Source: Poseidonia sp. (GTDB lineage: Archaea; Thermoplasmatota; Poseidoniia; Poseidoniales; Poseidoniaceae). From it: a stretch of 64,000 nucleotides of DNA. The stretch is from contig JAUREJ010000003.1 of assembly GCA_030827475.1 (NCBI GenBank), positions 6,648-70,647 of the forward strand, read 5' to 3'. Position 1 is the stretch's first letter. Every line of letters starts with the position of its first letter. The notes under the pieces were generated by a model. That model saw only the letters and a list, made by a program, of their open reading frames with translations, was not told the DNA's origin and did not search any database. The position numbers were made by a program, and so were the translations under genes. Positions 14,201 through 28,077 of the stretch are shown one piece after another.

Positions 14201-14808
14201 CGTTGAGCAAGGGCGAGACCCGAACCCAACAGTTCACGGTGTTTGCTCCCGAATCTTTTTCCGAGGGTTCATTTGATTTGACCGTCTACGTCAACAGTCT
14301 TGACGAAACGGTCGCACAGCAGACGGTTGTTGTCAACGTGCAGGCTGCCGTGATCAAGTTGGTCGTCGACGAAGGGGCCATCGTGGTCAATTCCGACTCC
14401 AATGCGAACCAAGCCGGCAGCGTACGTGTGCCCGTGAGCAACAACGGCTTCTTGGACGCACCATCGGTTCTCGTCTATATTGAGCCTACATCGCCGGCGA
14501 GCCAACCAGAGCGCTCGGTGACCATCAACGTCCCCGCCGGGGAAACCGTTGAGGCGGTGTTCGATGACATGACCTTCACGCAGGGCAACCAGCGATTCAA
14601 CATCCGTGTTGAGGTTGCAGGTGCTGAAACAAGCAGCGTTGAATCCATCTCGTTGCCTGCCGGTGGGACCTTCTCCTTGGAGTACTACACCCAGAGTGAT
14701 ACCGAAGGCGAGTCCATTTGGACGACGCTTCTAATCATCGTTTTGCTTGTTCTCGTGGTCGTTGGCGGCGTGAAAGTCAGTCGTGGTGGCCGTAGAGGCA
14801 AGTTCTGA
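5233..14808 (+). CDS. aglB: giant (3191 aa) AglB/STT3-type oligosaccharyltransferase: multi-TM core with EL1 acidic motif (DPWYMKRVVDY, about nt 6445) and the WWDYG catalytic signature (nt 8083..8097, aa 951-955). Preceded by about 350 aa of extra TM helices and followed by about 2200 aa of acidic beta-rich extracellular sequence that ends in a C-terminal TM helix (LLIIVLLVLVVVGG + RGGRRGKF)
   Basis: Uninterrupted ORF. WWDYG is diagnostic of STT3/AglB/PglB. Many hydrophobic helices lie before it, and the DxxK motif TVDKYLN follows it. Confidence 0.8.
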   Translation: MEEHTETTANQPGAIMGLLLAPLAVLLALATTRVVGIEYDLTLNNMMPMLVVAIASMLALVPRIVQDARPEFASSTLSLGVLAIAFFGAEVLHSFLGVDALAALMFAVLVVLGSNFDRRGRHEWVAMMTFSGVGFWLALAAAGDALAALPSTYTMESGQLVSTMNLERQATAYVFFAYWTMFTVVGVLAGVLARGTVNPAGAEGWFAFLGQHDGFNRANLPLVIALVVWVLAFVGSLFHFNSVDTIDQLAITTEAGYHGYIGYWTAFLTGLVALIVAGMCAERWYTRAMLVGSMWGLYQVAAWFEAGIWYNEDMDGTWGALIWLGITFFLGVGIYSIGNHEKYGGWANLGEHEPSQARLFLRAHGAGLMIALAFLVGLAIRIQWYAVPSMNAFGTGNWDMTGGSDPWYMKRVVDYILANNAHLVFDADRFYPIGGINPRPPLFSWTMAIGAMFLEPFLNTPEDAVWWSMLALPAVYGALTVFPIAIIAKDHFGKGAGVIAAWLIAFMPAHVTHSTWALADHDSFVMLFISVGFLYWLRAVKYAGSARITKVTTAHPKSFFQAYLDVLAHRQAAVANAVLAGVAFGIVSLGWKGFVVGPSILFLAYALQVALNMFRRRDSTTLSALFLTMLLTTFLMALPFYGHPEFDLILNPTGLQPFLFISGFTLAIAFVTTGFRDKPWLLVLGTLVGLAAVFFILLYILKTLELSNAWDVLFTGSGYFTKTKIFGTVAEANAPNRAQLFASFGPITFLLALIIGGGLLWKGLRYRKGTELVFGVWVFAATFMAWNAARFMFNATPVMAVLGAAGIVALWQWANWSGLVRSWKKFGIRTPADRITGARKAVWRTPQFSAIFLVMIMIFSQQATYGLDSAIPGTSNQEGEIDERIYNVVPDILRFDALGFSVLDSSNYDGRWYLGSFGSSFNDNGWNAAYEWLANQDTDMKYSEKPAFVSWWDYGFQAMSTGEHPSVSDNFQSGIPATGNMLLARNQDDLTAMFIWQLAEGDRTYATTDNSNHKFTPTFQNTVDKYLNDAQMEDFVTMQTTFDETMIDFIELRSFSVVKANRNIVMAEGHPSTAGVFDADTTIYRIYKDGVPLPCTEEFSSSCLGDAWSSMSEANITFTNNIRTPDETVNGRTHSIFGDYWYTADLIDEYLSVSTNIHRTNARLAMMTQLLTEAFDAHPTATIHDLYNDLIGLEGLYRVQDYEGKPGETISRDHEIRYFAIDDRLYPRAGRYTADSNYNRGQPMGIFGAPTILSGQDIGTYMDEVYETVRGDFQDEMTREEVDEAMQKDFLNQQAGADIDPLQIQDVRVDHNPAFFDTMVARTYVGYGASTLGINTAASNPQPAQHFGQSGSPGSVLANSLPLPGAMMNHFVISNWYSEDETVSIQSTNTLVKILKYYPGAELTGQVTMTDNGEGLPGVRILIERDAFSGEGSSDNDEDTYWIPIGFVDADDDGKYSFLAPAGRLRVTAFAGDYDPSEARDNLRDGSYAERLSDILTDTNDDRQINEITAILGQVANMSWLGEAQLNVTADQANRVVPMDRTLDVSIESSGVSGTVTWSGDEAFNGDPIAETTFILRNIWSMTDNYTVVTTSGSFTSEESRILQGTGEATLTEDGSFDSEGIALAKNFIGDFTRDIGNERSFFANGTWNGNGLLEASWVGVENITACEADNTSNAVMPANETICVVDATTTPPTYRLEGTVDAQGTFTSEGTSTLTRTYGDADAGQGETIEGAGLFEGTGTFNGTGLFIGVGTFSGPMVEPGSFYKTGLLPGTYNMIAQLANGKEVLLPDPVEIGVVPSFDLRMNMPGAIFTDILSNMVGDGLANTTIELIDRDLGEDAAVYIVTDELGNFSYGPVAKGDYYYRVDVDGDGYYDLNESVMVLDDTTNISLAMGVPDTVDVTMTLISPVDPLTQEPLFDVSNRTITFENTEGILQPMNVTSDENGELSIELLYGVWDVRDDANPDFVLFDQVDLSPGTENIVKDVTYAQAAYINGSLRSYPGVTVEEYDAWLDATLEEDKVKTTEPASALTVNFVSGTLAFTAVTNVSGAFSVRVPSGLTYHMTTESVMANRGYGELVEVESGVDLDLGPLFLEPSTGVSGVLYLYDNTTRWDATQPLWEAVDVVATNEDGLEWRTTVSDTATFFFDLLDGDWDLSVDDERLNVSVIQDVSVNHSLTETLSTMDLIANPEAIELTFNIYLDAGGDGMLENGTLVSPDFQLKPIDEDKESLYFTADDYTSNGNITLALTPGGYDLVFNRTTAESENASDFDLIGVQFFDAIVVGLDAIDEPFDVALKNTYLVNGTLTNSTGDGIANDFLLYNEAEDQWFNIGSDENGSFAAYVPAGEWLAIVAPFSNGNETETLRSPISVQHDSARLDLALTTEVSVEVTLQLMAWLTNETLADMTVTAVSQDGYGNITFDRTDANGNATEMMMPGTWSLYLNRTVGTQSWFLDTSDAPFTTADAVNNSLVLGPVYAELEVEIGGKVYWDLDNNSLPSLGEGISEFNITLQGVNHSDVSIDTVTDSEGVWRAFVPIRDVYNVTVAKEGFETVYYATENESGYAVYDSPDSRDIEVTAGSVDVFGYVTDQLDAQRLIDATIVLYPVAGVERDPVSLDGTMNGTTLEWSASIQPGDWVVVVREADPGQNGGGVAIGLLEATVSNGGNLSLVMALGGYVDLSTAWADIEQNEHHAGADGAGGSMIQDDVELEVTFEEMSWILSLPSSGKFEKLLFPEGTIAFDSEFTTVQHERQLEMEYFGGQTTSVAADSSISATLNYNRRVNSNLDVNFVESSVGSSATVLDVEDVELEAIVSSGNASIFNTITFDYTVDYNGTEIVDVFTVSGELGLAQDSEDWTVQIWNSTSLAYEDSVEIVLGIGDNETEAALTTTVRVQVTLPDVGDAWSLENGHRVTVRMKTDLGESTQVSAKIFVPQTYAFSISDATEELGMSALVERRFSFDITNDGNGQDTFTIELLESGILEGWSITPMTSTLTLSKGETRTQQFTVFAPESFSEGSFDLTVYVNSLDETVAQQTVVVNVQAAVIKLVVDEGAIVVNSDSNANQAGSVRVPVSNNGFLDAPSVLVYIEPTSPASQPERSVTINVPAGETVEAVFDDMTFTQGNQRFNIRVEVAGAETSSVESISLPAGGTFSLEYYTQSDTEGESIWTTLLIIVLLVLVVVGGVKVSRGGRRGKF

Positions 14809-14861
14809 TTTGGCCCGTTCAAAGAACAAGCATTCTTGTGCTCGTTCAGTGGGGCTGAGGC

Positions 14862-16073
14862 ATGGAGGGTCTGCGGGACGTCGAGTACCTGCCTGAACCC
14901 AGCGACAGGAGCATTGTTTCCGCTGTCGACCCGACCGTTATCGGCTTTCAGGACGAATGGCGCTCAGAGATCATGGGCTGGGCACCCTTCCCGGTCGAAC
15001 CCGTGGTGCGGACCCGACGACGACAACGTTCCTTGGGTGGGTTGGTGGTGTTCGCTCTGCTCGTTTCTGCAAGCCTCGTGCTTTGGCAGAATCAATGGGT
15101 TGTAGTTGAACTTCCGCTCCCAAATTCCGAATGGGCCTTCGCTGATTCTGGGATTCGCTCTCTCCAAGAATCAGGGTTGACGGGCGAGGATGTTCGCGTC
15201 TGCATGGTGGACACGGGGATCGACCTGTCGCATCAGGCGTTCTTTGGAAAAGAAATCGTCTTCAAGGACTTCATTGGCGGTTCAACAACACCGGTTGACT
15301 ACGGTGCGGTCGCGCACGGCACGCTAATGGCGGGTTTGATGATCGCCACCGGCCATCAGACCGGTTCAGCACCAAACGTGACGTTTGCCATGGCGGCCGC
15401 TCTTCAAGACAACGGTGAAGGAGAAAACACCGGCTTTGACAGCGATGTGGCAGATGCCATCCGCTGGTGCCAGTTTGATTTTGAAGCGGACATCATCTCC
15501 TTGTCTTTGGGAGGGACTGAGCGGGCACAAAACGCTGATGAAGGCTCTTCTGCGGCTGCAACGCGACAAGCTACGGACGCCGGGGTCTATGTGGTCGCTG
15601 CTGCGGGCAACGACGGACTGTCAGATGACGGGGACGTCGCCTCACCTGGCAGTGTGCGTCTTGCGATTTCAGTGGGGGCGACAACACAATCCGGTTTACT
15701 TTGGGAAAACTCTTCTGCCGGGGCACGGGAAGACGCCGAAGCCAACCCCCGCGCATCGCCTCACGAAAAACCCGAAATCGTCGCACCCGGTCATCGCATC
15801 ATCAGTACAGGTGAAAGTGACCTCTGGTATTCAAGCAGCGGAACCTCTGACTCCACCGTTTTCGTTGCCGGTGCTTTGGCGCTTATCCTCGAGGCTCAAC
15901 CCAACCTCAAGCCGTCCGTATCCCAGGACGCGTCGTGCATTGAGCGGGTGAAACTCGCTTTGGCTCAATCCGCACAACCGTTGTCAAACGAAAGGCACGA
16001 TGCCCGGGGAGGGTACGGCTTCCTCGATGCGGCTGGATGGTTGGCTCAAATCGGTGCTGTTTCGGAGTGCTGA
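14862..16073 (+). CDS. subtilisin-like serine protease (peptidase S8) with N-terminal signal-anchor/Tat-like RRRQRSL + hydrophobic segment and no recognisable I9 propeptide
   Basis: Catalytic triad contexts VCMVDTGID (Asp), HGTLMAGL (His), SGTSDSTVFVAGA (Ser); alternative start at 14973 (MGWAPF). Confidence 0.85.
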   Translation: MEGLRDVEYLPEPSDRSIVSAVDPTVIGFQDEWRSEIMGWAPFPVEPVVRTRRRQRSLGGLVVFALLVSASLVLWQNQWVVVELPLPNSEWAFADSGIRSLQESGLTGEDVRVCMVDTGIDLSHQAFFGKEIVFKDFIGGSTTPVDYGAVAHGTLMAGLMIATGHQTGSAPNVTFAMAAALQDNGEGENTGFDSDVADAIRWCQFDFEADIISLSLGGTERAQNADEGSSAAATRQATDAGVYVVAAAGNDGLSDDGDVASPGSVRLAISVGATTQSGLLWENSSAGAREDAEANPRASPHEKPEIVAPGHRIISTGESDLWYSSSGTSDSTVFVAGALALILEAQPNLKPSVSQDASCIERVKLALAQSAQPLSNERHDARGGYGFLDAAGWLAQIGAVSEC

Positions 16074-16122: not shown

Positions 16123-16230
16123 ACCGTTCTCCGCTTTAGAGTCATTTTACGGAAGTATATTCCCTGAAAAGGGTAAATGAAATGATATTCTTACGTCATT
16201 ATGATACGGTAAGAGCGGCGATTGAGGCGC

Positions 16231-16243
16231 AGTATTATATTCG
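16231..16243 (+). promoter_or_regulatory. TATA-box-like element (AGTATTATATTCG) in an AT-rich island (16120..16260) about 35-45 nt upstream of the giant beta-helix protein start
   Basis: Strong local AT bias in an otherwise 58% GC sequence. Confidence 0.4.
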
Positions 16244-16275: not shown

Positions 16276-19200
16276 ATGTCACGCCGAAAGCAAGCAAAAT
16301 CTCTGTCGCTCGTCCTTCTCTACATGGTCTCCATCATGGTGGGGATGGTCAGCCTTCCAACGGTGATGGCCAACAACGAAACAACCCAAGGCACCGTCAC
16401 CGGTGTCGAAACATGGTCTGGAACCATGAACCTTCAAGGAGATGTTGAGGTCGCTGAAGGTGCGAAACTCATCATCAATGCCGGGACCACCGTGAACATT
16501 CCCTTCGGGAAGTTCATTGACGTCAAAGGTGCCATTTGTGTTGGTGATTCCGCCTGCGGCGCCAGTGCAGGTTCAGCATCCTCCAAGGCACGCTTCATGT
16601 GGTCTCTCCCCACCGATTACACCAAGATTGGTCGTTGTTATGTCAACGGATCGAGCACCTTCACCAACGGGGACGCAGCCTGTGGGTCCGGTTTGGTGAT
16701 TCGTGACACGATTGACCAGTCCATCACTTCCATCAACTTCGCTCACTTTGAGAACGCTTACGGCTACCCCATCTACGTGCAAACGCTCCAGGCCGTTCAG
16801 TACGGTGCATTGGTGTTTGATGGCTCAAGCACCACGGCACGTGGACTCTCGTTTACCGACATCAACACCTCAAACGTTATTGCGATTGATTTCGCATCCC
16901 CAACCATCTCCGAGTCCACGTTTGAACTCGGCGTTGACGGTCGAGGGTACGATGCCGCTGCTGTCCGCGCCTACGGCGCAGGTGCCGGTATTCTCGCCAC
17001 GTTTGAAGTCAAGGATTCCAGTTTTACAGGCAACGATGCTGACTGTGGCCAGCAGGGCGGAGGTCGTGCCGTCCTCTTCATCGAAGATTCGTACATTGAC
17101 ATGGACAACCTCGACATCTCACAAAACTCCTATGGCGTTTTGATGAAGTCAAGCTCCGGCTCGCTCACAAATTCTGTGATTGATGTCAAGTGCAACGCAA
17201 TCGACACGAACTCGTTGAAGACAACGGGTACGATCGACCACACCCTCACCATCACCAACAACGTCATCACCACGGCCGAAGGTGCTGGTTTGACGGCCTA
17301 CGACGGTGCCAAAGTGTACGCTGAGCGGAACACCATCTCGGGGGCTTCGGAAGGTTCTGGTGTCGGTATTCGTTCCTCGGTCGTGGAACTCCACAACAAC
17401 ATCATCGGCCCCGTTGGTGGCTGGAACGGCTTGTGGATTTACGGGACCTCTGATGTGGTCGCCGAAAACAACACCATTCAGGACACGGGTAAAGAGCCCG
17501 TCCTCATCGGTGAGTACCACTATCAGGATTCAGGCTGGCAGGTGCCTGCACCAAGTGCTGCCCGTCTCTACCTCGCGAACAACGTGATCTCAAACAACTC
17601 CGGGACGTGCAACTCTCAGATGTACGGCGGTGACTTCCCTTGCCCTGCCGTGCACGTGTTCCGTTCATCAGCCAGCATTCTTGACAACACCATCTCCGGA
17701 AACAACGGTGACATCATCCGTGCCAAGGGTTCGCTTGTGAACGTCCAGCGCAACACCGCTGACAGCCAAGGTGGATTTGCGGGCAACATCAGCCTTCACG
17801 ATGACAATTACGGAAACAAGTACGGTTCTGTTGCTTATTTCTCTGGCAACACCTGGACCGGCGTTTCCCAAGTGTACAACATCACTGAATCCCGCGTGAC
17901 CGTTCAGTCTGAACAAATTCCATCGCCGGGCTTCAACGAATCTTACCCTGTCAACATTCGTTGGCTCGGTGCCGAGTGCCCATATGTTCAGGACGAGTGC
18001 TTGAAACTGCCCGACACCGTTGCTCTCCCCCCCGCACAGATGCCTTTGGCTCTCGAACTCGTAGAAAACGCAACGGTGTTCTCTTTCGCTGACCTGCAAA
18101 ACTTTGATTCATCGATGATCCATGTTCAAAACCAAAACACTGCTTGGGGCTCCCAAGTCCGGGAAGGTGAACTTGTCCAGTACCAGGTTAAAGCCAAGAA
18201 CTCCAACGTTGCAGGTGCAACGGTCGTCATCAAGGACGCAACGGGTCTGCCACTTTACGAATTGACAACCGACGCTCTCGGTTACACACAAGAGGTGTCT
18301 CTCCCCTCCGACTTCCTTCTGGACCGAAACTGGAATCACATCGTGGGTGATAAGAACGCTGCAATCCCCGGAACGAACGACGGAACGGGACAACCCATCG
18401 TCGTTGACGAGGATTCTTGCGCCGACGGCATTGACAACGACGGCGATACTTACGTTGACGATTTTGACGTTTCCTCCGGTGCAGGTGACACCTCAAACTG
18501 CGAGAGCGGCAACCGTGAGATGCCGTTTTACACGGTTGAAGCCTTCAAGTTTGGAAGCGGTACCAAAGAACTCTCCTACGTGTTGAGCGGTCCGGTGAAC
18601 GACGTCATCAACCTTGACAACCTCCGTCCTGGGGTGACGGTGAATCAGCAAGACGGCACGTCGTTTGCGACGACCGTTCGTCTGACAGGCCAAGCCTGGG
18701 ACGGTGCGAAATGGCCATACGCCAACGACAACACCGCCGTTCAATCGCAATTTGGAAAGATTCAGCGCGTTGAGATTCAGCCGCCGGGTTCAACCGACTG
18801 GTACACTGCCTCCGATACTTCCGGCTCGGGCGGCGAAATCACGATGGCAAACCACCCGTTCAAGGACTGGGTTTTCGACTGGGACATGTCTGCTCACCCT
18901 GAGGGCGAGGGCGACGTGACGTTCCGCATCCGGTCCTTCGATGGCTTGGATTATTCACCGGTCGAGGTCCGTCAGTACAAGCTCAACTTGGTCGCTCCCA
19001 CGATTTTGGTGGATGTTCCGACCACGGGAAGCACCTTCAACAACGGCAAAGTGCTTTTCCAAGGTACGGCATCTGACCCTTACCAGGGCACCTACGGCAG
19101 CGACGTGAAACAAATCTGGTTCCATATTTCCGGCGAGGGTGGATTCGAGCAGCAATTCTTCCAGGCTGGGTCGACGAGTTGGTCCTATGAATGGGACGTT

Positions 19201-20697
19201 GGCGACCTCCCAAGCGGCGACTACACCGTTACCATCTGGGCTGCTGACAGCGACTTATGTATTGACAACAACACCGGTTGCCAAGTTGAAGTTCGGACCA
19301 TCACCATCAACAACGAAAACCTCCGGCCGAATCTTCAATTATCTTGGATTGGTGCAGCAGACCAGTCCTCAGGCGGTATTGATGGCGACACCGTTCGTGC
19401 ATCAACTGAAACGAAGATTGTCGGCGTGGCCCGTGACGTTGGTGGCTTTGTGACTCGTGTTGAAATCGAAATCACCGACCTCGCCAACGGACTGGTGCTT
19501 AACGATGGGCCACTTCCGGTCACTTCGTTCAACGCTGACGGTTCATGGGTTGCCAACTGGGACACCTCTGACCTCGTTCACGACCGTGTGTATTCCGTGA
19601 CGGTTCGGGCTTACGACGGCGATGATTACTCGGACGACATCGTTTGGAGAATGACCATCAACAACCCACTTGATGCAGAAAATATTGATCCCGTGTTCAA
19701 CGAAACCGGCTGGGTGGGTACATGGACCATTTTCTGCGATGAAAATTCCAACTCCTTCGACCGCTGCGGTGGCGGTGTGACGTTTGACCTCGGTAATTTC
19801 TTTTCGGACCCCGATGGAACAGGGACCCCAGCCAACGACCTGGAATTCTACATCTACGATGACCCAGCAACCATTGAAGACGACATGTACTTCGATTTCA
19901 TCCGAATTTCCGCTGATGGATTGCTCACTTACGATCCGGTTTCCATGATGAGTGTCACCAGCAACATCCCCGATTGGTCCTTGAACGCCGTGGTGATCTA
20001 TGCTCAAGACGATCAAGAATCAAAGGCATATTCACTCAAAGTGAACTTCCTCGTCCGCGGGGTCTCCTTCAGCGTTGAGCGCGCCGACTCCGGCGCCATC
20101 ACCGTGAACGACCCCGCTACGTTCCGAGGGACAGGACTTCCCGGAAGCACGGTGAACCTTCGCTTCGCAGATGGAAACTCCCTCCTAAACAGCACGAAGG
20201 TTCTCTCCGACGGAACGTGGAGCATGGACCTCTCAGCCAGCCAACTCGGTATTGAAGGTAAGTCGGCGGTTGTCTTTGAAATGGACGATCAATACTTCAG
20301 GTTCTCCGGTCAATCCCAAACCGAAAAAGGCGAATTCAGTATTTCGGTTGCGGGGGCCGATGATGGCGGTTCGGGTGTCCTCGGTATCGTTCTTATCGTT
20401 CTCGCAGTTTTGGTGCTTCTCGGTGCAGCTGCGTTCTTCTTCATCGAATTTGAGGAAGTGGTTGACGAAGCCGAGTTGACCGGCGATGACGCCCAAGAAG
20501 CGGAGGACCCTTATGCTTGGGCCAAAGCCAAGCAAACGCCAAGTCTGCCTGAACAGGCCCATGCGCCTATGGAAACTGCTCAAGCCGTTGCAGAAATCGC
20601 TGCACCCGCCGCTGCCTCCCAACATCCAGGGTGGCTGTGGGACGAAGCCACGAACCAGTGGGTCCCTGACCCGAACTACCAGCAACCGCAACAGTGA
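16276..20697 (+). CDS. giant secreted cell-surface protein with right-handed parallel beta-helix (NosD/pectin-lyase-like) repeats, Asp-rich Ca-binding-like segment (DGIDNDGDTYVDDFD), C-terminal TM helix and short Pro/Trp-containing cytoplasmic tail
   Basis: ORF track 16222..20697; signal peptide MSRRKQAKSLSLVLLYMVSIMVGMVSLPTVMA starts at 16276; repeated motifs NNVITTAEGAGL, RNTISGASEGSGVGI, HNNIIG; C-terminal GIVLIVLAVLVLLGAAAFFFIEF. Confidence 0.8.
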   Translation: MSRRKQAKSLSLVLLYMVSIMVGMVSLPTVMANNETTQGTVTGVETWSGTMNLQGDVEVAEGAKLIINAGTTVNIPFGKFIDVKGAICVGDSACGASAGSASSKARFMWSLPTDYTKIGRCYVNGSSTFTNGDAACGSGLVIRDTIDQSITSINFAHFENAYGYPIYVQTLQAVQYGALVFDGSSTTARGLSFTDINTSNVIAIDFASPTISESTFELGVDGRGYDAAAVRAYGAGAGILATFEVKDSSFTGNDADCGQQGGGRAVLFIEDSYIDMDNLDISQNSYGVLMKSSSGSLTNSVIDVKCNAIDTNSLKTTGTIDHTLTITNNVITTAEGAGLTAYDGAKVYAERNTISGASEGSGVGIRSSVVELHNNIIGPVGGWNGLWIYGTSDVVAENNTIQDTGKEPVLIGEYHYQDSGWQVPAPSAARLYLANNVISNNSGTCNSQMYGGDFPCPAVHVFRSSASILDNTISGNNGDIIRAKGSLVNVQRNTADSQGGFAGNISLHDDNYGNKYGSVAYFSGNTWTGVSQVYNITESRVTVQSEQIPSPGFNESYPVNIRWLGAECPYVQDECLKLPDTVALPPAQMPLALELVENATVFSFADLQNFDSSMIHVQNQNTAWGSQVREGELVQYQVKAKNSNVAGATVVIKDATGLPLYELTTDALGYTQEVSLPSDFLLDRNWNHIVGDKNAAIPGTNDGTGQPIVVDEDSCADGIDNDGDTYVDDFDVSSGAGDTSNCESGNREMPFYTVEAFKFGSGTKELSYVLSGPVNDVINLDNLRPGVTVNQQDGTSFATTVRLTGQAWDGAKWPYANDNTAVQSQFGKIQRVEIQPPGSTDWYTASDTSGSGGEITMANHPFKDWVFDWDMSAHPEGEGDVTFRIRSFDGLDYSPVEVRQYKLNLVAPTILVDVPTTGSTFNNGKVLFQGTASDPYQGTYGSDVKQIWFHISGEGGFEQQFFQAGSTSWSYEWDVGDLPSGDYTVTIWAADSDLCIDNNTGCQVEVRTITINNENLRPNLQLSWIGAADQSSGGIDGDTVRASTETKIVGVARDVGGFVTRVEIEITDLANGLVLNDGPLPVTSFNADGSWVANWDTSDLVHDRVYSVTVRAYDGDDYSDDIVWRMTINNPLDAENIDPVFNETGWVGTWTIFCDENSNSFDRCGGGVTFDLGNFFSDPDGTGTPANDLEFYIYDDPATIEDDMYFDFIRISADGLLTYDPVSMMSVTSNIPDWSLNAVVIYAQDDQESKAYSLKVNFLVRGVSFSVERADSGAITVNDPATFRGTGLPGSTVNLRFADGNSLLNSTKVLSDGTWSMDLSASQLGIEGKSAVVFEMDDQYFRFSGQSQTEKGEFSISVAGADDGGSGVLGIVLIVLAVLVLLGAAAFFFIEFEEVVDEAELTGDDAQEAEDPYAWAKAKQTPSLPEQAHAPMETAQAVAEIAAPAAASQHPGWLWDEATNQWVPDPNYQQPQQ

Positions 20698-20722
20698 CGG
20701 GCTAACGAGCGAGGGAATTTTG

Positions 20723-23248
20723 ATGGCTGTTCTGGGGAAGCCGGGGGTGCAAGAGAGGATCCTTTTGCACTTGTTGGACTACTCTGATTTCAAAGACAGC
20801 ATTGAAGTGCCGTTCGCACTCTCTCAAATGGGTATTGCGAACGCCGTGGCCATCGCTCGTTCAAACGTGCCCCGAGCAATTGCTGGCTTGAAGGACCAGG
20901 GGATATTGGTTGAACGCCAAGCTCATGTCAAAGGCGTTTCTCGAAAACGGAAGGCCTACTTTTTGACCGATAGCGGCGTTTCCCTCGCAGCGGAGACATG
21001 GCAGCGTCTTTCGGACGTTCCCGTACGATGCATCATCGATGCTCAGTCACCCAGAGATACAACGCTCGGTGGCATTAAGTCTGTGCTTCCTTTTCCGATG
21101 CGACCCGTGGATGTCATCCGGTACATGGACGATAACCACACCTTGGACCTACGAAGCTTAAGCGCCGAATTGGTCGAGCGGGATTTGTCAAAACACGTGG
21201 AAAAACAACTGGTCACCTCCCTCGCCGACCTTCCGCGTCTGCGTCATTTCTACGGGAGGGAAACCGAACTTGACAACATGGTGAACCTTCTCGAAGCACG
21301 GGCAACGACATTGCTCGTACCGGGGATCGCTGGAATCGGGAAAACGACGGTGGCCTCCAAGTTGATCGAGCGGTTCCTTCATCGACGAAATTTGCTCTAT
21401 CACCGGTGTCAAGATTGGGAAGGATCCCGGTCTTTTTTCGAATCCGTGGCGGACTGGCTCTCGAGCATGGGAAACTCAGATTTTTCGACATATCTTGCTG
21501 CGACACCTGTTCCTCAGCCCGGTGACGCTGCGCGACTTCTCGTCGAGGCCCTTCAAGGCTCACCCGCCCTCATCGTCATCGATGATTTTCACAAGGTAGC
21601 CGACCTCGTTCTTCACCAAACCTTCCAGGCCATGTCGTTGAATTTGCTCGGAAGTGAGGAAAAGATTGGTTTGGTGATGTTTTCAAGGTCGTTCAAACCC
21701 GTTGTTCCGACAAAGGACGCTGAAGGGCGGATTGCAAGCTTGGTGTTGCCGCTTGACGGTCTTGATTCCGCTTCGGGTCGTAAACTTCTCAGCAGTTTTA
21801 AGCAACTCGAAGAAGAACAATGGCTTCACATTCACGGCTTGTCCCGAGGGCACCCACTGGTCTTGGAACTCATCAACCGTGGAGCTTCGGCCGGAGCGTT
21901 CCACGAGACGTTGGAAAATTATGTCACGGTCGAGATTTTCTCAAAATTGAGTGCCGAACAGAAGCGTGTCCTCTCCGCCCTGGCCATTTTCCGAGAGCCG
22001 GTGTTTCTTGATGCCCTGGCTCAACAACAGTTGGATACCGATGTTCTCGACAGTCTTGTCGAGTCGGGTTTGGCTCGCCAAGCCGACGCGGATACATACG
22101 ACGTTCACGATTTGATTCGTGAATTCCTGCTACGAAGCATGACGCCCGCCCTCAAATCGGAATTTCACAGTAAATGTGCTGATTGGTACGGTAAGCAGCC
22201 CGAGAGTCACGAAATTCTCGTGGAGTTGATCTATCATCTCATTCAATCCGGGCAACACGACGAAGCTTCAAAATCCATCGTCACCGAAGGTCGTCATCTC
22301 GTCACGCAAGGCCACATGGAATTGCTTGGCCTGATTGAACAAGTCGATACGGCTGACATCGACTCCACAACGCAACTCTCTCTGGCTCAACTGCAGGGTG
22401 AAATTTTAGCCTTGTTGGGACGTCACGATGAAGCAGAAGTGTTGCTCCAAACCGCTTTGGAGCGAGCAGAGAAGAACGCCGATGTTCTCGTTCAAGCCGA
22501 GTTGCTCTCATCTCTGGCGGATGTGAGCCGGAAACAAGGGAACAGCGACCTCTCACTCCAGCGCCACAAAAAAGCGCTCAAGCACTACATCGCTCTCGGG
22601 GATGCTCGTTGGGCTGCTCGAACCTACAACAACATCGGCTACCTCCTGCGCCGGAAAAACGAACAAGCAAAGGCGCTTGAAGCCTATGGTGAGGTGGAAT
22701 CCATTCTTTCATCCTCCAACGATGACGGTTTGATCAGCAGCCAGATCACGCTGGCCAGAGCCCTCATCGACCTGGGTGAAGTCGACCGTGCCCGTCACCA
22801 CGCCATGGCGTCTCACGAACGCACCTCTGAACTCGAAGACACGTCGTTGCACGCACGGGCTCAAGCTGTTCTTGGGAGGTACTATTCGCGGGTGGAGCAA
22901 TCTGAACTTGCCCTGTTCCACTACAACGAGGCACTTGTTGCAATGAACGAAGCAGGTGATGTCCAATCGCTGGTTGAGATCACGATGTTGCTGGGCGAGG
23001 TGCTCCACGATGCTGGGCGAGGCGATGAAGCCATTGAGCATTATCGGGAGGCCCTCGTGTTGGCCGAAGCTAACGACCTACGCATGCAAATAGGGGAATT
23101 GTTGACCCGTCTCGGTGGACTTTCTCCCGAACGTCACGAACGAATGGAATATTTGCAACGTGCCCTCAAAGTGTTCCGTGAATTGGGCGCTCAATCCCGC
23201 ATGCGTGAAGTCCAATCGCTGGTCCACCGAGCCGTAATGGGACGCTAA
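20723..23248 (+). CDS. STAND-type signal-transduction NTPase: N-terminal winged HTH, P-loop NB-ARC/AAA-like domain (Walker A GIAGIGKTT, Walker B LIVIDDFH), C-terminal TPR array
   Basis: Motifs read directly in the translation. The ORF track start at 20486 would overlap the upstream giant gene by 212 nt, so the Met at 20723 preceding the wHTH was chosen. Confidence 0.75.
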   Translation: MAVLGKPGVQERILLHLLDYSDFKDSIEVPFALSQMGIANAVAIARSNVPRAIAGLKDQGILVERQAHVKGVSRKRKAYFLTDSGVSLAAETWQRLSDVPVRCIIDAQSPRDTTLGGIKSVLPFPMRPVDVIRYMDDNHTLDLRSLSAELVERDLSKHVEKQLVTSLADLPRLRHFYGRETELDNMVNLLEARATTLLVPGIAGIGKTTVASKLIERFLHRRNLLYHRCQDWEGSRSFFESVADWLSSMGNSDFSTYLAATPVPQPGDAARLLVEALQGSPALIVIDDFHKVADLVLHQTFQAMSLNLLGSEEKIGLVMFSRSFKPVVPTKDAEGRIASLVLPLDGLDSASGRKLLSSFKQLEEEQWLHIHGLSRGHPLVLELINRGASAGAFHETLENYVTVEIFSKLSAEQKRVLSALAIFREPVFLDALAQQQLDTDVLDSLVESGLARQADADTYDVHDLIREFLLRSMTPALKSEFHSKCADWYGKQPESHEILVELIYHLIQSGQHDEASKSIVTEGRHLVTQGHMELLGLIEQVDTADIDSTTQLSLAQLQGEILALLGRHDEAEVLLQTALERAEKNADVLVQAELLSSLADVSRKQGNSDLSLQRHKKALKHYIALGDARWAARTYNNIGYLLRRKNEQAKALEAYGEVESILSSSNDDGLISSQITLARALIDLGEVDRARHHAMASHERTSELEDTSLHARAQAVLGRYYSRVEQSELALFHYNEALVAMNEAGDVQSLVEITMLLGEVLHDAGRGDEAIEHYREALVLAEANDLRMQIGELLTRLGGLSPERHERMEYLQRALKVFRELGAQSRMREVQSLVHRAVMGR

Positions 23249-23255
23249 TTCAGCT

Positions 23256-23735
23256 TCATTGAACCGCTGCAGGCCGGTCGAGCGAGAGGAACGTGACGCC
23301 GTCTTCGTGAACCACCCAAAGCCGTTCCACGCCAGAGAGAGGAATGCGCCCCTCATGGACACCAGCGCCTGTTCCTGACAACGCTGTCGAGGTGTCAAGC
23401 GGTCCACCTTCATCGATGAGCAGAAGAGAAGTGTTCGTGAGTTCAAGCCAAAACAAGGATTCGTCCGCTTCCGTTGGCCGCCAACTGACCGCCTCGGCGT
23501 AGGATATGTTCCCGCCAAGCCGGCTTGACTCATCTGCGCGCTCAACAGCGGCGGCGATGTCTTCCATGTTGGCTTGGATTGCCTCTTCGTTCCATCGCAA
23601 TCGGGTGTTGGTTTCAATGTCCCACGCCCAAACGCTGAACATGGACATCAAAAGGACCCCAAGAAGGAAGGTGAAAATGTAGCCCAACTCCGTGGCCGCA
23701 GCCCGGGTGTCGGCTCGAATGCTCGTGGACCTCAT
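23256..23735 (-). CDS. small archaeal type IV pilin-like protein (class III signal peptide-like N-terminus TRAAATELGYIFTFLLGVLLMSMF)
   Basis: N-terminal basic residue, small residue, then a 20+ aa hydrophobic stretch; start overlaps the stop of the upstream gene (23732..23735). Confidence 0.6.
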   Translation of the reverse strand: MRSTSIRADTRAAATELGYIFTFLLGVLLMSMFSVWAWDIETNTRLRWNEEAIQANMEDIAAAVERADESSRLGGNISYAEAVSWRPTEADESLFWLELTNTSLLLIDEGGPLDTSTALSGTGAGVHEGRIPLSGVERLWVVHEDGVTFLSLDRPAAVQ

Positions 23736-25966
23736 GCCATCACCTCTCGGGTGGTGACATCGAGCGAGGCCAGTTGGAGGGTGAATTCGATGACCTCACC
23801 GTTGGTGTGCCAGACCGCTTCTGCGGTTCCGTAACTCGGGTCCGGGACCCAACCCACATAATCCGTCAGAAGGTCCAACCGGCCGGGGTACACCGTCCAA
23901 TCCTCGCTTGCTTCGAGCCCGATGCCCGCACTGTCAGCGATGGCCGTTCCGTAGGGTTCCGACCAACCCCGCCTGACTTCGTAAGCGGGCGTTGAGGCCA
24001 GTGACATTCGGTGGACGAGTTCAATGTCAAGTTCCAGTTTTCCCCCTCCACTCTCGCTGTTGGCGGTTGGATGAAGCGAGGGAACCGTTGCGGCGAAGCG
24101 AGGTCCCGGTCCACCTCGGTCTGAGGGCGGCACGATGACGTAAGGGTTGAATTCCGGGTGATTGGTCACGACGGCTCCTCCGCTGAACGCCACTTCCATG
24201 CCGGCGATCGAGGATTGGAACTGGTATGCGAGTCGGGAGAGGTGGAACGACCAAACCGTTCCGATGGAGGCGTGCGTTGAGATGCCGTCGTTTCCAATCA
24301 CATCAATGGCGACGCTTGCGGGGTGACGTCCATCAATCCATGCGCGATGGAGGTCAACTTGGCTTCTTCCACCCATGCGTTCCCAAGGGAGGTCGGTGGT
24401 GATCCAACCGCTGGCTTGAGTGGAAACCGCCGTGCATCGATCTGCGCCGTCATGCGGGAGGTGATGCAACCCGTGAGCGCCTGCTGTGCGAAGGAGGCGA
24501 ACTGGATGGCCGTCAGTCACGGACAGAGCGGTTGTTCCGAGGGGAGCGGTGATGCTTTGCCGATTGTTTGCATCAAGGAACACGCCCGAATCGTTTGCAG
24601 CTCCCGTCAGGTTCCATGTTGAGGTGTAGCCTGCGAGTCGGTAGTGAAGGGTCTCAGCCGTGGTGTTGTCTTCGTTGGTGTACCTGAACACGCCTCCAGA
24701 ACGACCACCCGTGTCGTCGGCAGGAATCATTGCTGTGCCGACAGCATCGTTTGAACTGTTCAATGTGTTTGAAGCGGCCCATGCGAGGAAGACATCCCCG
24801 TCGGCGTCGAGCACAAGCGCACCTTCGTCGAGGGCCGGGGGCCACGCTACGTCTTCAACACCGCCGGCTGCGACAGAAATGCCGCCACCTCGCCACGTTA
24901 CGGTCACCACAGCATCGCCCGGATTGGTTAGGCGTAGTGTCCCGTTCATGAGAGGTGGGAGGAATTCATGGCCGAGGTACATGCCGGTCGTTGAAGGCCA
25001 AGCCGTCAGACCGAGGTCGTTTCCAGTGTTGGATTTCAGCAGGAGGCGTGAAGGCGAACTCGTCGTGATGTGAGCGACGGTGTCGGCCTCAACGGTGAGT
25101 TGGTGGGTGAACGCAACTGCGGTTCGTGCCAAGCCGCTGGGCAGGGCGTAGTGGATGCTGGTTTCCTCGCCGACCGTAATGTGAATTTGGTTGGCCTTTT
25201 GGCTGAGGAGGTGGATGGCGGTGGTGCCTTCCTTCAGCGGGATGGACCAAGCGTGACCTTTCTTGTCGGATGGTTCAGGAGCGTTTGGCAGGACGTAGGT
25301 CGCCCCGCTGCCCCCTGTTTCACCAAACACCGTAAGAGCATGACTCGATGTTAACACGGCTTCGCCGATGCTGGAAAGGTCAAACGATGCAGCATCATCG
25401 ACCCGCAGAGCGACGTTTTCCGCTTCTTCGCCGTCAACGTTCAACGTGACATCAATCGGGCCGAGCGGCATGGCGAGACCCGGTGTGACGGTGAAGAAGA
25501 CCCTGTCGAGGAAATCCTCGAGCGTGTAATAGTACGGTCGGTCCGGTCCAAGACGCAAATCGGTAACACAAACCGCCTCAACAAAACTCTCCGGGTGGCG
25601 AATCTCCAGTTCATCGTCAAAATCCAGTGCACCTCGTGCCCGCAGGGTCATGTCTTCCTGCCATGTTGCTGAATACCACATTCCGCCCCGCATGCTGTCC
25701 CAAACAAGATTTCCATCAACAGGAATCAAGGTCGCATGGGTGGAATCTCCGGGCATCCCTCGTTCGCTGAGGCTTGAGGTTTGGTGAGCGAGGAGCGTCA
25801 TCTGAGAGGACATGTCGTGGCGTTCAACCGAACCCTCCATCTCCTCGATGACGGGCATCATTGAGACCATCATGAGGCCGATGATGGAGAGGACACCGCC
25901 GAAGAGGAGCACCGTTGCAACGGCGGCAGAGACCGCTTCGTCTTCCCGGCGAAGTTGCCCCCTCAA
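23732..25966 (-). CDS. large (744 aa) archaeal pilin_N-domain protein (N-terminus EAVSAAVATVLLFGGVLSIIGLMMV resembles the conserved pilin_N/DUF1628 segment AVSPVIGVILMVAITV)
   Basis: N-terminal motif; translationally coupled on both sides (4-nt overlaps). Confidence 0.65.
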   Translation of the reverse strand: MRGQLRREDEAVSAAVATVLLFGGVLSIIGLMMVSMMPVIEEMEGSVERHDMSSQMTLLAHQTSSLSERGMPGDSTHATLIPVDGNLVWDSMRGGMWYSATWQEDMTLRARGALDFDDELEIRHPESFVEAVCVTDLRLGPDRPYYYTLEDFLDRVFFTVTPGLAMPLGPIDVTLNVDGEEAENVALRVDDAASFDLSSIGEAVLTSSHALTVFGETGGSGATYVLPNAPEPSDKKGHAWSIPLKEGTTAIHLLSQKANQIHITVGEETSIHYALPSGLARTAVAFTHQLTVEADTVAHITTSSPSRLLLKSNTGNDLGLTAWPSTTGMYLGHEFLPPLMNGTLRLTNPGDAVVTVTWRGGGISVAAGGVEDVAWPPALDEGALVLDADGDVFLAWAASNTLNSSNDAVGTAMIPADDTGGRSGGVFRYTNEDNTTAETLHYRLAGYTSTWNLTGAANDSGVFLDANNRQSITAPLGTTALSVTDGHPVRLLRTAGAHGLHHLPHDGADRCTAVSTQASGWITTDLPWERMGGRSQVDLHRAWIDGRHPASVAIDVIGNDGISTHASIGTVWSFHLSRLAYQFQSSIAGMEVAFSGGAVVTNHPEFNPYVIVPPSDRGGPGPRFAATVPSLHPTANSESGGGKLELDIELVHRMSLASTPAYEVRRGWSEPYGTAIADSAGIGLEASEDWTVYPGRLDLLTDYVGWVPDPSYGTAEAVWHTNGEVIEFTLQLASLDVTTREVMA

Positions 25967-27048
25967 CGACTCACCTCGATGCGTTGAAGATCGACTTCAA
26001 AATACAGCGGCAAGTTTTGAGCTGAGACGCTGAAGCCATCAGCGCCGCTTGCTCTTCCGTACGGGGAGAATCCAATGTAGGTGTCGAGCGTTCCAGCAGC
26101 GCGTTGCACGTTGTACTCGGAGAGCCAGTTGTCATGGTACTGGGGTGTGACCACATCGTGAAGGGCGTTTGTCACCGTGAATTGAACGTTGTAGGCGCGG
26201 CCGCTGAACAATGTTATGGGGCCTTGAGAGACGAATTCCAAGCCGATGTTGGAACCTGTTCCGATGCTTCCGTTGGTGATCACATCGGTCAGCAGCATGG
26301 ACAATCGCAACTCATCGTTGGCCATGCGATCAAACTCCACCAGGGGCATGGCGCTGACATCCCATGGTCCGTTTGGAAAACGCTCTGCTCGGGCGTTGTT
26401 CATCAGGACGATCTGATGTTCACCCTGCCCGAGCGAGGTGTGAATCTCCAATCCAGAAAGCGTCCACGAGACTTGTCGGTAGAGGGGTTCGTCATCCGCT
26501 CCAAAGACGGTGATGATCATCCAGTGGTTGGCGCTGGCGTTGTGCGAGACCATCACTTCCCGGTGGCTGGCCTCCACTTCGCTCGTGAGCGAAACGCCGG
26601 GCGATTGAACGGTGATGCTTCGAGCGGTTTCATTGGCGGCGAGGACACCAATCGTGGTGTCGTTCACATGACGCAACGAGATTCTTTCCGACGAAGTGAG
26701 GTCGGCCCCAATGGTCCAATGTTCGACGTTCTGCACCGGTCGGATCGAAGTGGATTGGATGGCCAGCGTGTTTCGGAAGCCCGTGCCTTCCGGTGCGTTC
26801 CCGGCCACCTCAATGCGGTCCTCAATTCGGTCAGCGAGCCCGGTGGCCGAATTCCAATTCGTGTTATCCTCAAAATCGGACAGGTACGGATTCAGGAAAA
26901 TCCAGACCCCGCCCATGATGGTGATGACCATGGCCAGCAACATCACGACACCCAGAACTTCGCTCACCGCCCGTTCTTCACCCCACAGGTGGCGGGAAGC
27001 GGACTGCGTCGATGGCCGGTTCACGCTTTGGACACGATGAGGTATCAT
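25963..27048 (-). CDS. archaeal type IV pilin-like protein (361 aa) with canonical class III signal (ER-A|VSEVLGVVMLLAMVITIMGGVWIF)
   Basis: [KR][GA] followed by VS-x-V-h-G-V-h-h-L, matching the pilin_N consensus (RGVSPVIGVILLVAITV). Confidence 0.75.
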   Translation of the reverse strand: MIPHRVQSVNRPSTQSASRHLWGEERAVSEVLGVVMLLAMVITIMGGVWIFLNPYLSDFEDNTNWNSATGLADRIEDRIEVAGNAPEGTGFRNTLAIQSTSIRPVQNVEHWTIGADLTSSERISLRHVNDTTIGVLAANETARSITVQSPGVSLTSEVEASHREVMVSHNASANHWMIITVFGADDEPLYRQVSWTLSGLEIHTSLGQGEHQIVLMNNARAERFPNGPWDVSAMPLVEFDRMANDELRLSMLLTDVITNGSIGTGSNIGLEFVSQGPITLFSGRAYNVQFTVTNALHDVVTPQYHDNWLSEYNVQRAAGTLDTYIGFSPYGRASGADGFSVSAQNLPLYFEVDLQRIEVSR

Positions 27049-27056
27049 TTAGCCAT

Positions 27057-27890
27057 TCACCCCAAATCCTGCGATGCGACTTCGTTGTGCAGGGGTGATT
27101 TGGTTTCGGTTTCGGATGGCTGCCCGATGTAATGGGAAAAATCAGGGCCGTCCTGTTCGGAGATTTTCAGGTCGCCCGTGAAGACTTCTGCGATGTGATA
27201 GAGCACGGTCGATTCGGCGATGTGAGGCCGATTGTTTTTCTGGCTTAGGTGCGTCAGGACAATGGTTCGTGTGGCTTCCGTACAAACCTCGGCCAGGAAC
27301 TGGCCGGTTTGGTCGTTTGACAAGTGGCCTCCGCGTCCGGAGATGCGATCCTTCAAGCTGTACGGGTACGGGCCTCCAAGCAATTTCTTCTCGTCGTAGT
27401 TGGCCTCAATGGAAATGTGTTCGCAACCCCGCACGTGCGTGACCAGTTCGTCGGTCCACGAGCCGAGGTCGGTGATGATGGCGGCTCGTTCTCCGTTGTG
27501 GCTTGCGACAAAGGCCACATTGTCCGAACCGGCGTGGGGGACGGGAACGGGCAGCACGGAGAGGTCGTCACCGACACGTATCAAATCAAGCGCAGCGAAG
27601 TGGGTGGTCAACGAGGGGAGCAGGTCGAGTTCAAGCGCCGTACGCTCGTTGGCCAGGATCTGGGTGTTCCATCGCGTTTGCATGATGCGAGCACCACCTC
27701 CGTGGTCGCCGTGATGATGGGAGATGAAGACGCAATCGATGTCCTCCGGGCTGAGGTCAAGGCGGGCGAGCCGCTTCTCCAGTTGTGCGCCGCTGAAACC
27801 CTGATCGATCAGCACCCGAACCTTTGGCGTCTCCAGCAGCGTCGAGTTGCCCCGGCTTCCGGTTCCAAGGTGGGTGATGGTCATCGTCAT
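27057..27890 (-). CDS. MBL-fold metallo-hydrolase (YycJ-like: HLGTGSRGNS, HHHGDHGG, GHLSN motifs)
   Basis: HxHxDH zinc-binding motif and GHLSN. Start at MTMTITHLG (27890) rather than the track's 28079; this leaves an 8-nt gap before the pilin operon. Confidence 0.8.
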   Translation of the reverse strand: MTMTITHLGTGSRGNSTLLETPKVRVLIDQGFSGAQLEKRLARLDLSPEDIDCVFISHHHGDHGGGARIMQTRWNTQILANERTALELDLLPSLTTHFAALDLIRVGDDLSVLPVPVPHAGSDNVAFVASHNGERAAIITDLGSWTDELVTHVRGCEHISIEANYDEKKLLGGPYPYSLKDRISGRGGHLSNDQTGQFLAEVCTEATRTIVLTHLSQKNNRPHIAESTVLYHIAEVFTGDLKISEQDGPDFSHYIGQPSETETKSPLHNEVASQDLG

Positions 27891-28077
27891 GCGAACAACT
27901 CGGAGCGGTCGCGGAGGATTCTTGAACACACCGACAGAACCTGACGGTATCGGATGTTTTGGCGGACTTTCGCACGACGTCAAGGTGTGCGTGTATGAAC
28001 AATGTTCCATCACCCTCATAAGCAATCTGAGCAAGGTATTCTTTGAGCGAAGCGTATGCTTTGCAGCAGGCGAGAAC

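Follow-up and report, generated by a model that had tools for sequence, protein, structure and literature searches.

We analysed a 64,000-nucleotide stretch of the genome of the archaeon Poseidonia sp. (NCBI GenBank assembly GCA_030827475.1, contig JAUREJ010000003.1, positions 6,648 to 70,647 of the forward strand), hereafter the window, in which the gene at 20723-23248 encodes a STAND NTPase with an N-terminal winged helix-turn-helix (wHTH) domain and C-terminal tetratricopeptide repeats (TPRs). This gene very probably specifies a STAND regulator of the PH0952 type. The interpretation that we favour, and hold to be fairly probable, is that of a signal-sensing transcription factor of the PH0952 clade, which would bind, as an oligomer, to repeats of the hexamer TGATAY and control the expression of a surface protein and of itself. 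The gene and the parts of its product are laid out as follows, in positions of the window:

20723-23248, + strand: STAND gene, encoding an 841-residue wHTH-NOD-arm-TPR protein assigned to the PH0952 clade
20747-21010, + strand: winged helix of the MarR/PadR/Crp type, residues 9-96 (AlphaFold model, profiles), the presumed DNA-binding effector
21020-21163, + strand: small alpha/beta module, residues 100-147 (AlphaFold model)
following this module: disordered linker, residues 148-161 (AlphaFold model)
21245-22138, + strand: NOD (NBD-HD-WHD), residues 175-472 (Pfam, alignment with PH0952, model)
21323-21349, + strand: Walker A, GIAGIGKT
21566-21589, + strand: Walker B, hhhhDD
within the NOD: sensor R322, GHPL (GxP) motif at residues 376-379, HD motif at residues 462-463
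22145-22342, + strand: helical arm, residues 475-540 (AlphaFold model, analogy with PH0952)
22364-23239, + strand: TPR sensor, residues 548-839, 16 helices forming about 8 repeats (model, Pfam)

The open reading frame (ORF) of 841 codons begins with the ATG at 20723 and closes with the stop codon at 23246-23248. The frame given in the six-frame ORF list is open over 20486-23248; we place the start at 20723 because the extension (20486-20722) overlaps the 3' end of the preceding gene, referred to below as the beta-helix gene (a 1491-aa ORF in the list), and because all orthologues are of about 841 residues. In a Pfam scan of the protein, AAA_16 was found on residues 176-304 (37.4 bits, above the cut-off) and TPR_12 (E 6e-24), with many other TPR models, on residues 560-835, together with a weak match to TPR_MalT. 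The small alpha/beta module at residues 100-147 gave no match in a family search. An AlphaFold model computed from the single sequence was unusable (pLDDT 43), and we therefore relied on a model built on an alignment of 45 sequences (pLDDT 85.5, pTM 0.60). Among 45 relatives of 23-83% identity, there is no variation at G201, G204, G206, K207, D287, R322, G376 and P378, and very little at D288, H462 and D463 (at least 90% conserved). Since the P-loop, D287 of Walker B, R322 and the GxP motif are thus invariant, and D288 and the HD pair nearly invariant, the NTPase looks functional, with its ATPase motifs intact.

The N-terminal fold, which the model draws as H-H-H-beta-beta over residues 9-96, is confirmed as a winged helix at the level of the family. 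A profile of 22 N-termini matches structures of MarR, SlyA, MepR, PadR and Crp, from E 4e-5, and in Pfam HTH_Crp_2 is found in 20 of these 22 family members, PadR in 14 and MarR_2 in 11. It is also the most conserved part of the protein: residues 7-85 are almost invariant among nine orthologues, and residues 6-60 are 78% identical in an orthologue whose overall identity is 49%.

By sequence, PH0952 (PDB 6MFV) is the sole STAND protein among the PDB matches at E<=0.01 (E 3.3e-25), residues 170-473 of the query aligning with residues 9-292 of its NOD. By fold, a Foldseek search against the PDB returned 6mfv_A first (E 3e-17; 684 aligned columns), then Avs3 (second, E 9e-10), MalT, CED-4 and Apaf-1. 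The feature far exceeds what chance could produce, given the E of 3e-25 to PH0952 and the orthologues found in at least 416 species genomes. PH0952 has been described as a predicted transcription factor with an ArsR-like N-terminal effector, in a clade placed between the APAF1/NB-ARC and MalT clades and reported in Thermococcales and in other archaeal phyla (Lisa et al., NAR 2019; PMC6468293).

Across marine Group II archaea the gene is widely conserved. Among database relatives, the 120 best show 70-100% identity and nearly all have exactly 841 residues, and those that are named come from Poseidonia, Poseidoniaceae or Poseidoniales; across Poseidonia and Poseidoniaceae the orthologues are of equal length and 69-100% identity. 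A scan with one genome per GTDB species found a relative in at least 416 genomes. The best 80 of these are 69-95% identical and carry the labels Poseidonia, Poseidoniaceae, Poseidoniales or broader archaeal ones, with one exception labelled Verrucomicrobiales (L016). In a library with clusters at 50% identity, a single cluster takes in the full-length orthologues of Poseidoniaceae (at least 69% identity), and the next full-length relatives are at 24-31% identity (E 1e-93 to 1e-55); these share the wHTH, since their alignments begin at residue 9. In all, 533 such clusters score at E<1e-30; the closest are from Thermoplasmatota, and those that bear a name belong to Thermoplasmata or Thermoplasmatota. 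A metagenome scan seeded with distant relatives yielded further orthologues at 64% identity (807 residues) and at 49% identity.

Outside Poseidoniales the family can be multi-copy, as one Thermoplasmatota contig (L095) carries two paralogous STAND-TPR genes, at 8001-10712 and 12199-14823, 1.5 kb apart. In another subfamily of relatives (L099 2228-2851, L100 7468-7986 and L105 7342-7962) a small gene of 172-207 codons stands immediately before the STAND gene, abutting or overlapping its start in L100 and L105 and lying about 80 nt upstream in L099, a pairing that suggests a different two-gene operon. A giant surface gene as neighbour was considered as a family-wide trait after 5 of a first 6 contexts had shown one, and was dropped when the count came to about 6-7 of 19 distinct contexts.

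A first-pass annotation, made from the sequence alone, had read the protein as a winged helix, a P-loop STAND ATPase and TPRs, and this order is borne out by Pfam, the AlphaFold model and the N-terminal profile; the Walker A motif GIAGIGKTT and the Walker B motif that it named are present, at residues 201-209 and 282-289 (LIVIDDFH) respectively. Its likening of the protein to ligand-sensing STAND transcription switches of the MalT/AfsR kind is supported as well, PH0952 being the closest structure by both sequence and fold, and no family of the ORC/Cdc6 or clamp-loader type, which would have spoken for a housekeeping AAA+ protein, appears in the Pfam or NCBIfam output. The label NB-ARC is close but does not strictly apply to the protein itself: PF00931 has no Pfam match in the latter at E<=0.01, and is matched by 32 of 45 relatives at E<=0.001 (best 1.1e-11). 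TPR_MalT is found in 41 of the same 45, and the two family-level results would fit a clade intermediate between APAF1 and MalT. Two estimates needed correction. The TPRs had been put at about 350 residues; the canonical TPR region is of about 290 (548-839) and comes after a helical arm of 65. The architecture had been called rare in archaea, which it is not, given the 533 clusters, the at least 416 species genomes and the presence of the clade in other archaeal phyla (PMC6468293).

The genomic context provides the link to a surface protein. The elements concerned, all on the + strand, are:

16183-16212, + strand: pair of TGATAY boxes, the candidate operator, with TGATATTCTTA at 16183 and TGATAC at 16202, 19 nt from start to start
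16224-16243, + strand: invariant core GAGGCGCAGTATTATATTCG, 20 nt, with the TATA-like TATTATAT inside
16276-20697, + strand: beta-helix gene, about 1470 codons, with a signal peptide, beta-helix and Big_7 domains
20503-20535, + strand: tail motif 1, EDPYAWAKAKQ, conserved, in the cytoplasmic tail of the beta-helix protein
20623-20679, + strand: tail motif 2, HPGWLWDxxxNQWVPDPNY, conserved, C-terminal in the same tail
20698-20722, + strand: spacer of 25 nt between the beta-helix and STAND genes, with a Shine-Dalgarno-like motif GAGGG

The STAND gene is the last (3') gene of a co-directional cluster. From the stop codon of the beta-helix gene to its start the distance is 15-60 nt in all orthologous loci examined, a Shine-Dalgarno-like motif of the GAGG type is always present, and within the genus Poseidonia the spacer is too short for a promoter. 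Because the spacer is this short in every orthologous locus, we infer, as the simplest reading, that the two genes form an operon and are co-transcribed. The same gene order was found in all the orthologous loci examined, which span identities from 100% to 49%: a giant STT3 protein of about 3200 residues, an S8 subtilase, the beta-helix protein of about 1470 residues and the STAND protein, then the convergent genes for pilin-like proteins and a metallo-beta-lactamase (MBL)-fold hydrolase, and beyond them a divergent gene for a surface protein of about 1950 residues, which in the window is of 1993 residues. The remaining members of this order in the window are:

5233-14808, + strand: giant protein of 3191 residues with an STT3 domain, first gene of the conserved co-directional cluster
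14862-16073, + strand: membrane-anchored S8 subtilase, a conserved cluster member
23256-27869, - strand: convergent operon, with the MBL-fold hydrolase (27057-27869) followed by pilin-like proteins of 361, 744 and 159 residues

The giant protein has an STT3 membrane domain (the AglB-type oligosaccharyltransferase) at residues 392-654, a huge extracellular region with CarboxypepD_reg-like repeats and a C-terminal transmembrane anchor; at 3191 residues it is an unusually large STT3 fusion for an oligosaccharyltransferase, and in each orthologous locus it likewise opens the cluster. The MBL-fold hydrolase (27057-27869, - strand) heads the pilin-like operon with a gap of 8 nt to the 361-codon gene, and its orthologues have precomputed Pfam matches to Anti-Pycsar_Apyc1 (PF23023) and Lactamase_B. 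All three pilin-like proteins carry signal peptides of the class-III type. The STAND and pilin-like genes end 8 nt apart, and a search for an intrinsic terminator between these convergent ends found none. At gathering score, Rfam recognised neither a tRNA nor any other family in the window.

Upstream of the beta-helix gene, in the region that separates it from the S8 subtilase gene, lies an array of direct repeats. The extended consensus of the box is TGATAYWNTWA. It is present in two copies in Poseidonia and in four in other Poseidoniaceae, with start-to-start spacings of 19-23-19 nt, so that alternate boxes of the four-box arrays are 42 nt apart, about four helical turns. The core GAGGCGCAGTATTATATTCG begins 16 nt after the box at 16202 (14 nt to the flanking TG at 16222), the distance from array to core is fixed across loci, and the core is invariant across most loci while its flanks vary freely. 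It ends about 33 nt before the ATG at 16276, and the TATA-like TATTATAT stands about 36 nt before this ATG. The core is non-coding: in two loci (L004 and L006) the main ORF runs in another frame, and in some species the "start codon" is TAG; the TTG at 16222, which the mechanical ORF uses as start of the beta-helix gene, was rejected on the same frame evidence. The likely start of the gene is the ATG at 16276, preceded by AGGTG, and the core is likely the TFB-recognition element and TATA box of the beta-helix-STAND operon.

The array is unique in the window. TGATAY-N13-TGATAY occurs once in the window against 0.01 expected, and the 11-mer likewise once, while single TGATAY hexamers number 24 on both strands, against about 60 under uniform base use, a scarcity that sets off the pair at 16183 and 16202 all the more; a scan of the window found no hexamer in the cluster's other intergenic regions. 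Among neighbouring TGATAY hexamers in 1.75 Mb of loci, a distance of 19 nt was counted 80 times and one of 23 nt 25 times, with every other spacing up to 60 nt seen at most 10 times. Nearly all arrays are on the + (coding) strand, about 4.53 kb before the STAND start. The arrangement extends to the more distant orthologues: those at 64% identity have retained TGATAC-N13-TGACAC/CGATAC together with a CACAGCGTTATAT core and a spacer of about 14 nt, and the one at 49% keeps a TGATAC/CGATAT pair 19 nt apart. No Rfam family matches this promoter region. The 12-nt TGAGGCGCAGT, found at 16223 and again at 28079, was considered as a shared regulatory motif and discarded, because the copy at 28079 codes for MRRS, with different codons in orthologues, and the copy at 16223 is non-coding and invariant. 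Among the distant relatives, tandem direct repeats upstream of the gene were likewise tried as a rule and kept as an anecdote, being clear in L090, short in L093 and L094 and absent elsewhere. The clear case is that of a relative of 26% identity and 945 residues, which has, about 93 nt ahead of its start, three 21-nt tandem direct repeats (L090 7845-7908, consensus GGGGGTTAAGGGGAATGCAAA), in a region shared divergently with a gene for a 2733-residue alpha-2-macroglobulin/CARDB protein.

The first-pass annotation had described the gene as wedged between a giant surface gene and the pilin operon, a picture that has to be redrawn: the gene closes a co-directional cluster, with 25 nt between it and the beta-helix gene, and the pilin-like genes run towards it from the opposite strand. 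Its suggestion that the protein controls adjacent genes finds a strong counterpart in the spacing and repeat array of the beta-helix surface gene, while for the pilin-like genes the link is one of conserved adjacency only. It had also pointed to the flanking intergenic regions as places for conserved palindromes. There is none between the S8 and beta-helix genes, where direct repeats are found instead; one, GAACA-N-TGTTC, is found before the 1993-codon gene.

Proteins of the STAND class are described as cycling from a closed ADP-bound monomer, whose NOD is opened by a ligand, to ATP-bound, head-to-tail multimers that present their effectors (PMC6468293, PMC10427625). MalT oligomers bind multiple promoter sites cooperatively (PMC10427625), and the DNA-binding domains of AfsR sit side by side on direct repeats (PMC11301090). 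By analogy with PH0952, MalT and APAF1, the Poseidoniales protein at rest would be a closed monomer with bound ADP, autoinhibited by contacts of the TPRs and arm with the NOD. A ligand on the TPRs or arm would open the NOD and allow ATP to replace ADP, upon which the protein would multimerise head-to-tail and bring several winged helices into register; so aligned, these could bind an array of sites cooperatively. The oligomer would sit on the two to four TGATAY direct repeats, just upstream of the TATA-like core, and exert through them a positive or negative autoregulation of the beta-helix-STAND operon. Two to four direct repeats, about two helical turns apart and placed before an operon that ends in the regulator, are the kind of site that would be expected for such a protein, and the conservation pattern of the wHTH agrees with this model. 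The evidence that ties the boxes to this protein is circumstantial, and we put this attribution forward as a real but tentative possibility.

Several points weigh against the favoured interpretation. MarR/PadR-type winged helices mostly bind palindromes, as dimers, rather than direct repeats. The wHTH match of the protein taken alone is weak and falls under the Pfam cut-off (HTH_Crp_2 on residues 12-66, E 1.6e-4). The array was sought in the window and in the orthologous loci, and the upstream regions of the other distant relatives show no consistent repeat architecture. Another factor could bind the TGATAY boxes, or the boxes might belong to an atypical core promoter. PH0952 itself is termed only a putative regulator, its action as a transcription factor being predicted (PMC6468293). 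For the Poseidoniales protein we infer alike the DNA binding, the oligomerisation, the role of the repeats as an operator, the direction of regulation and the ligand.

As to the ligand, one candidate is at hand in the operon itself. The beta-helix protein ends in a transmembrane helix and a cytoplasmic tail of about 100 residues, which is mostly variable except for the two motifs listed above; these are kept in all orthologues, including the one at 49%, and the rest of the window does not contain them. Short peptides are typical ligands of TPR domains. For this reason, and because the two genes appear to share an operon, we see the tail as a natural candidate for the ligand or tether of the TPR sensor, a proposal that is speculative. 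One might go further and imagine the two proteins as a transmembrane signalling module, in which the extracellular beta-helix/Ig part would sense a particle or polymer, the tail motifs would serve as ligand or tether, release or engagement of the tail would flip the STAND switch, and the oligomer on the TGATAY boxes would autoregulate the operon. We consider this extension rather unlikely as it stands. If true, it would give the PH0952 clade its first ligand, operator and regulon, and would reveal in marine Group II archaea a novel kind of signalling from envelope to gene. A surface protein of 1815 residues further along the window (33891-39338) also ends in a transmembrane helix and a proline-rich cytoplasmic tail, whose W-rich end LPEGWTQEQWDSYGWKYI (39264-39338, + strand) loosely resembles the GWxWD...QW of the beta-helix tail.

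The same transmembrane helix and conserved tail motifs could be read differently, the STAND protein being a cytoplasmic signalling hub or scaffold that docks through its TPRs on the beta-helix tail and uses its winged helix for protein-protein contacts. The conserved operon linkage and the peptide-binding habit of TPR domains would suit such a hub; its difficulty is that the winged helix, recognition-helix region included, is the most conserved part of the protein and matches the DNA-binding MarR, PadR and Crp families, and that distant relatives lack such neighbours, and we judge it quite improbable. A regulator with other targets is a somewhat different matter. The switch could act mainly on the pilin-like operon, on the divergent gene for the 1993-residue surface protein, or on both, through a conserved block of 29 nt, TGTMYGAACAWYGYTCCATCAYCCTCATAAG, which lies at 27994-28022 in the intergenic region 27870-28077. 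The genes for the STAND protein, the pilin-like proteins of 159, 744 and 361 residues and the MBL-fold hydrolase are neighbours in all orthologous loci, the one at 49% identity included; one distant relative of the STAND gene stands directly behind a Pilin_N gene, and TGTMYGAACAWYGYTCCATCAYCCTCATAAG is strongly conserved, with a palindromic core (GAACA-N-TGTTC within Poseidonia) that would suit a dimeric winged helix. However, the STAND and pilin-like genes converge and so can share no promoter, the intergenic region holds no TGATAY hexamer and shares no motif with the beta-helix promoter, and the arms of the palindrome decay beyond the genus Poseidonia, where the wHTH is still nearly invariant. 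As the distance between this block and the start of the 1993-codon gene is TATA-like, the block may simply be the core promoter of that gene. We think this alternative unlikely. A second conserved block, GCGAAGCGTATGCTTTG, stands about 23 nt beyond the first, the two spanning 27994-28063 (+ strand); a hairpin in it, GCGAAGC-GTAT-GCTTTGC, looked compensatory by eye and was abandoned when RNAalifold found no more than a single double change, with a covariation term of -0.27.

Finally, the gene had been suggested to be a degenerate Avs-type sensor, that is, an anti-phage STAND protein that has lost its effector. Avs3 is the second Foldseek match (see above), nSTAND6 gives a borderline, partial Pfam match (27.8 bits against a cut-off of 27.7, over 73 of 148 model positions), and PADLOC reports, besides weak TPR matches, weak and partial ones to PDC-S73 and PDC-S27 in the P-loop region. 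No Avs model was matched in PADLOC, though, and neither a nuclease or protease domain, which the first-pass annotation had named as signs of a defence role, nor a TIR or SIR2 domain was found with Pfam, NCBIfam or PADLOC. The N-terminal domain is instead a conserved wHTH, and the constant length, the occurrence in at least 416 species genomes and the strictly conserved synteny of a housekeeping type are the opposite of what is seen in patchy, island-borne defence genes. We thus regard a defence role, for this or any other kind of anti-phage STAND sensor, as highly improbable.

The interest of a transcriptional switch at this locus lies in where it is found. Poseidoniales are uncultured, and their gene regulation is almost uncharted. 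Here a regulator conserved across the order appears tied to giant surface proteins, an enzyme fusion for glycosylation and a protease, types of genes that are thought to mediate attachment to particles and the use of polymers. A crystal structure is available for the PH0952 clade, and the TGATAY array and the tail motifs offer two concrete hypotheses, one for the DNA site and one for the peptide, so that the locus makes the function of the clade experimentally approachable.

Among known systems, MalT of Escherichia coli resembles the Poseidoniales protein in joining a STAND NOD, an arm and a TPR-like sensor to a DNA-binding domain. It also offers the expected mechanism, with ligand-induced exchange of ADP for ATP, oligomerisation and cooperative binding to several repeated promoter sites, which the TGATAY array would parallel. 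The DNA-binding domain of MalT, however, is a C-terminal LuxR/GerE helix-turn-helix, whereas that of our protein is an N-terminal wHTH; GerE has no match in the latter (Pfam, NCBIfam), its C-terminus being made of TPRs, and the NCBIfam MalT model NF003420 gives a partial match (198-622) of 40.6 bits against a cut-off of 537. MalT is moreover bacterial, and its ligand maltotriose and inhibitors MalK, MalY and Aes have no counterpart here. In AfsR and the large SARP regulators of Streptomyces the order is the same as here, an N-terminal DNA-binding domain, a STAND NTPase and C-terminal TPRs, and these proteins bind direct repeats beside the core promoter, where the candidate TGATAY boxes are similarly placed. 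They differ in having an OmpR-type wHTH with a BTA domain as DNA-binding part and in working with the bacterial transcription machinery: neither Trans_reg_C nor BTAD is matched in the STAND protein (Pfam, NCBIfam), and the NCBIfam AfsR model NF053617 scores 39.5 bits where the cut-off is 1430, its match being confined to the TPR region. With APAF1, CED-4, the plant NB-ARC proteins and Avs the protein shares the NOD fold with its GxP and HD (MHD-like) motifs, but it has no CARD, TIR or nuclease effector, its sensor consists of TPRs and not of WD40 or LRR repeats, and its conservation pattern is that of a regulator, unlike that of immune genes.

The closest system remains PH0952 of Pyrococcus horikoshii, which is likewise archaeal and a predicted transcription factor, with the same succession of an ArsR/MarR-like wHTH, a NOD of NBD, HD and WHD, an arm and a TPR sensor, and with a P-loop, a GxP motif and a WHD of the ADP-clamping type. 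The identity in the full-length Foldseek alignment is only 18%. By residue-offset arithmetic, the N-terminal region of the Poseidoniales protein is about 60 residues longer and includes the extra alpha/beta module (100-147), which on this arithmetic alone is apparently without counterpart in the shorter region of PH0952. The TPRs number about 8 as against 6, and the hosts are Thermoplasmatota (Poseidoniales) and Thermococcales, respectively. The architecture of the protein is thus already known, and it is the context that is new: the conservation throughout the Poseidoniales, the operon linkage to a surface cluster, a candidate peptide ligand and a well-defined candidate operator. Neither a conserved operon nor a candidate operator has been reported for PH0952, and both are defined here.

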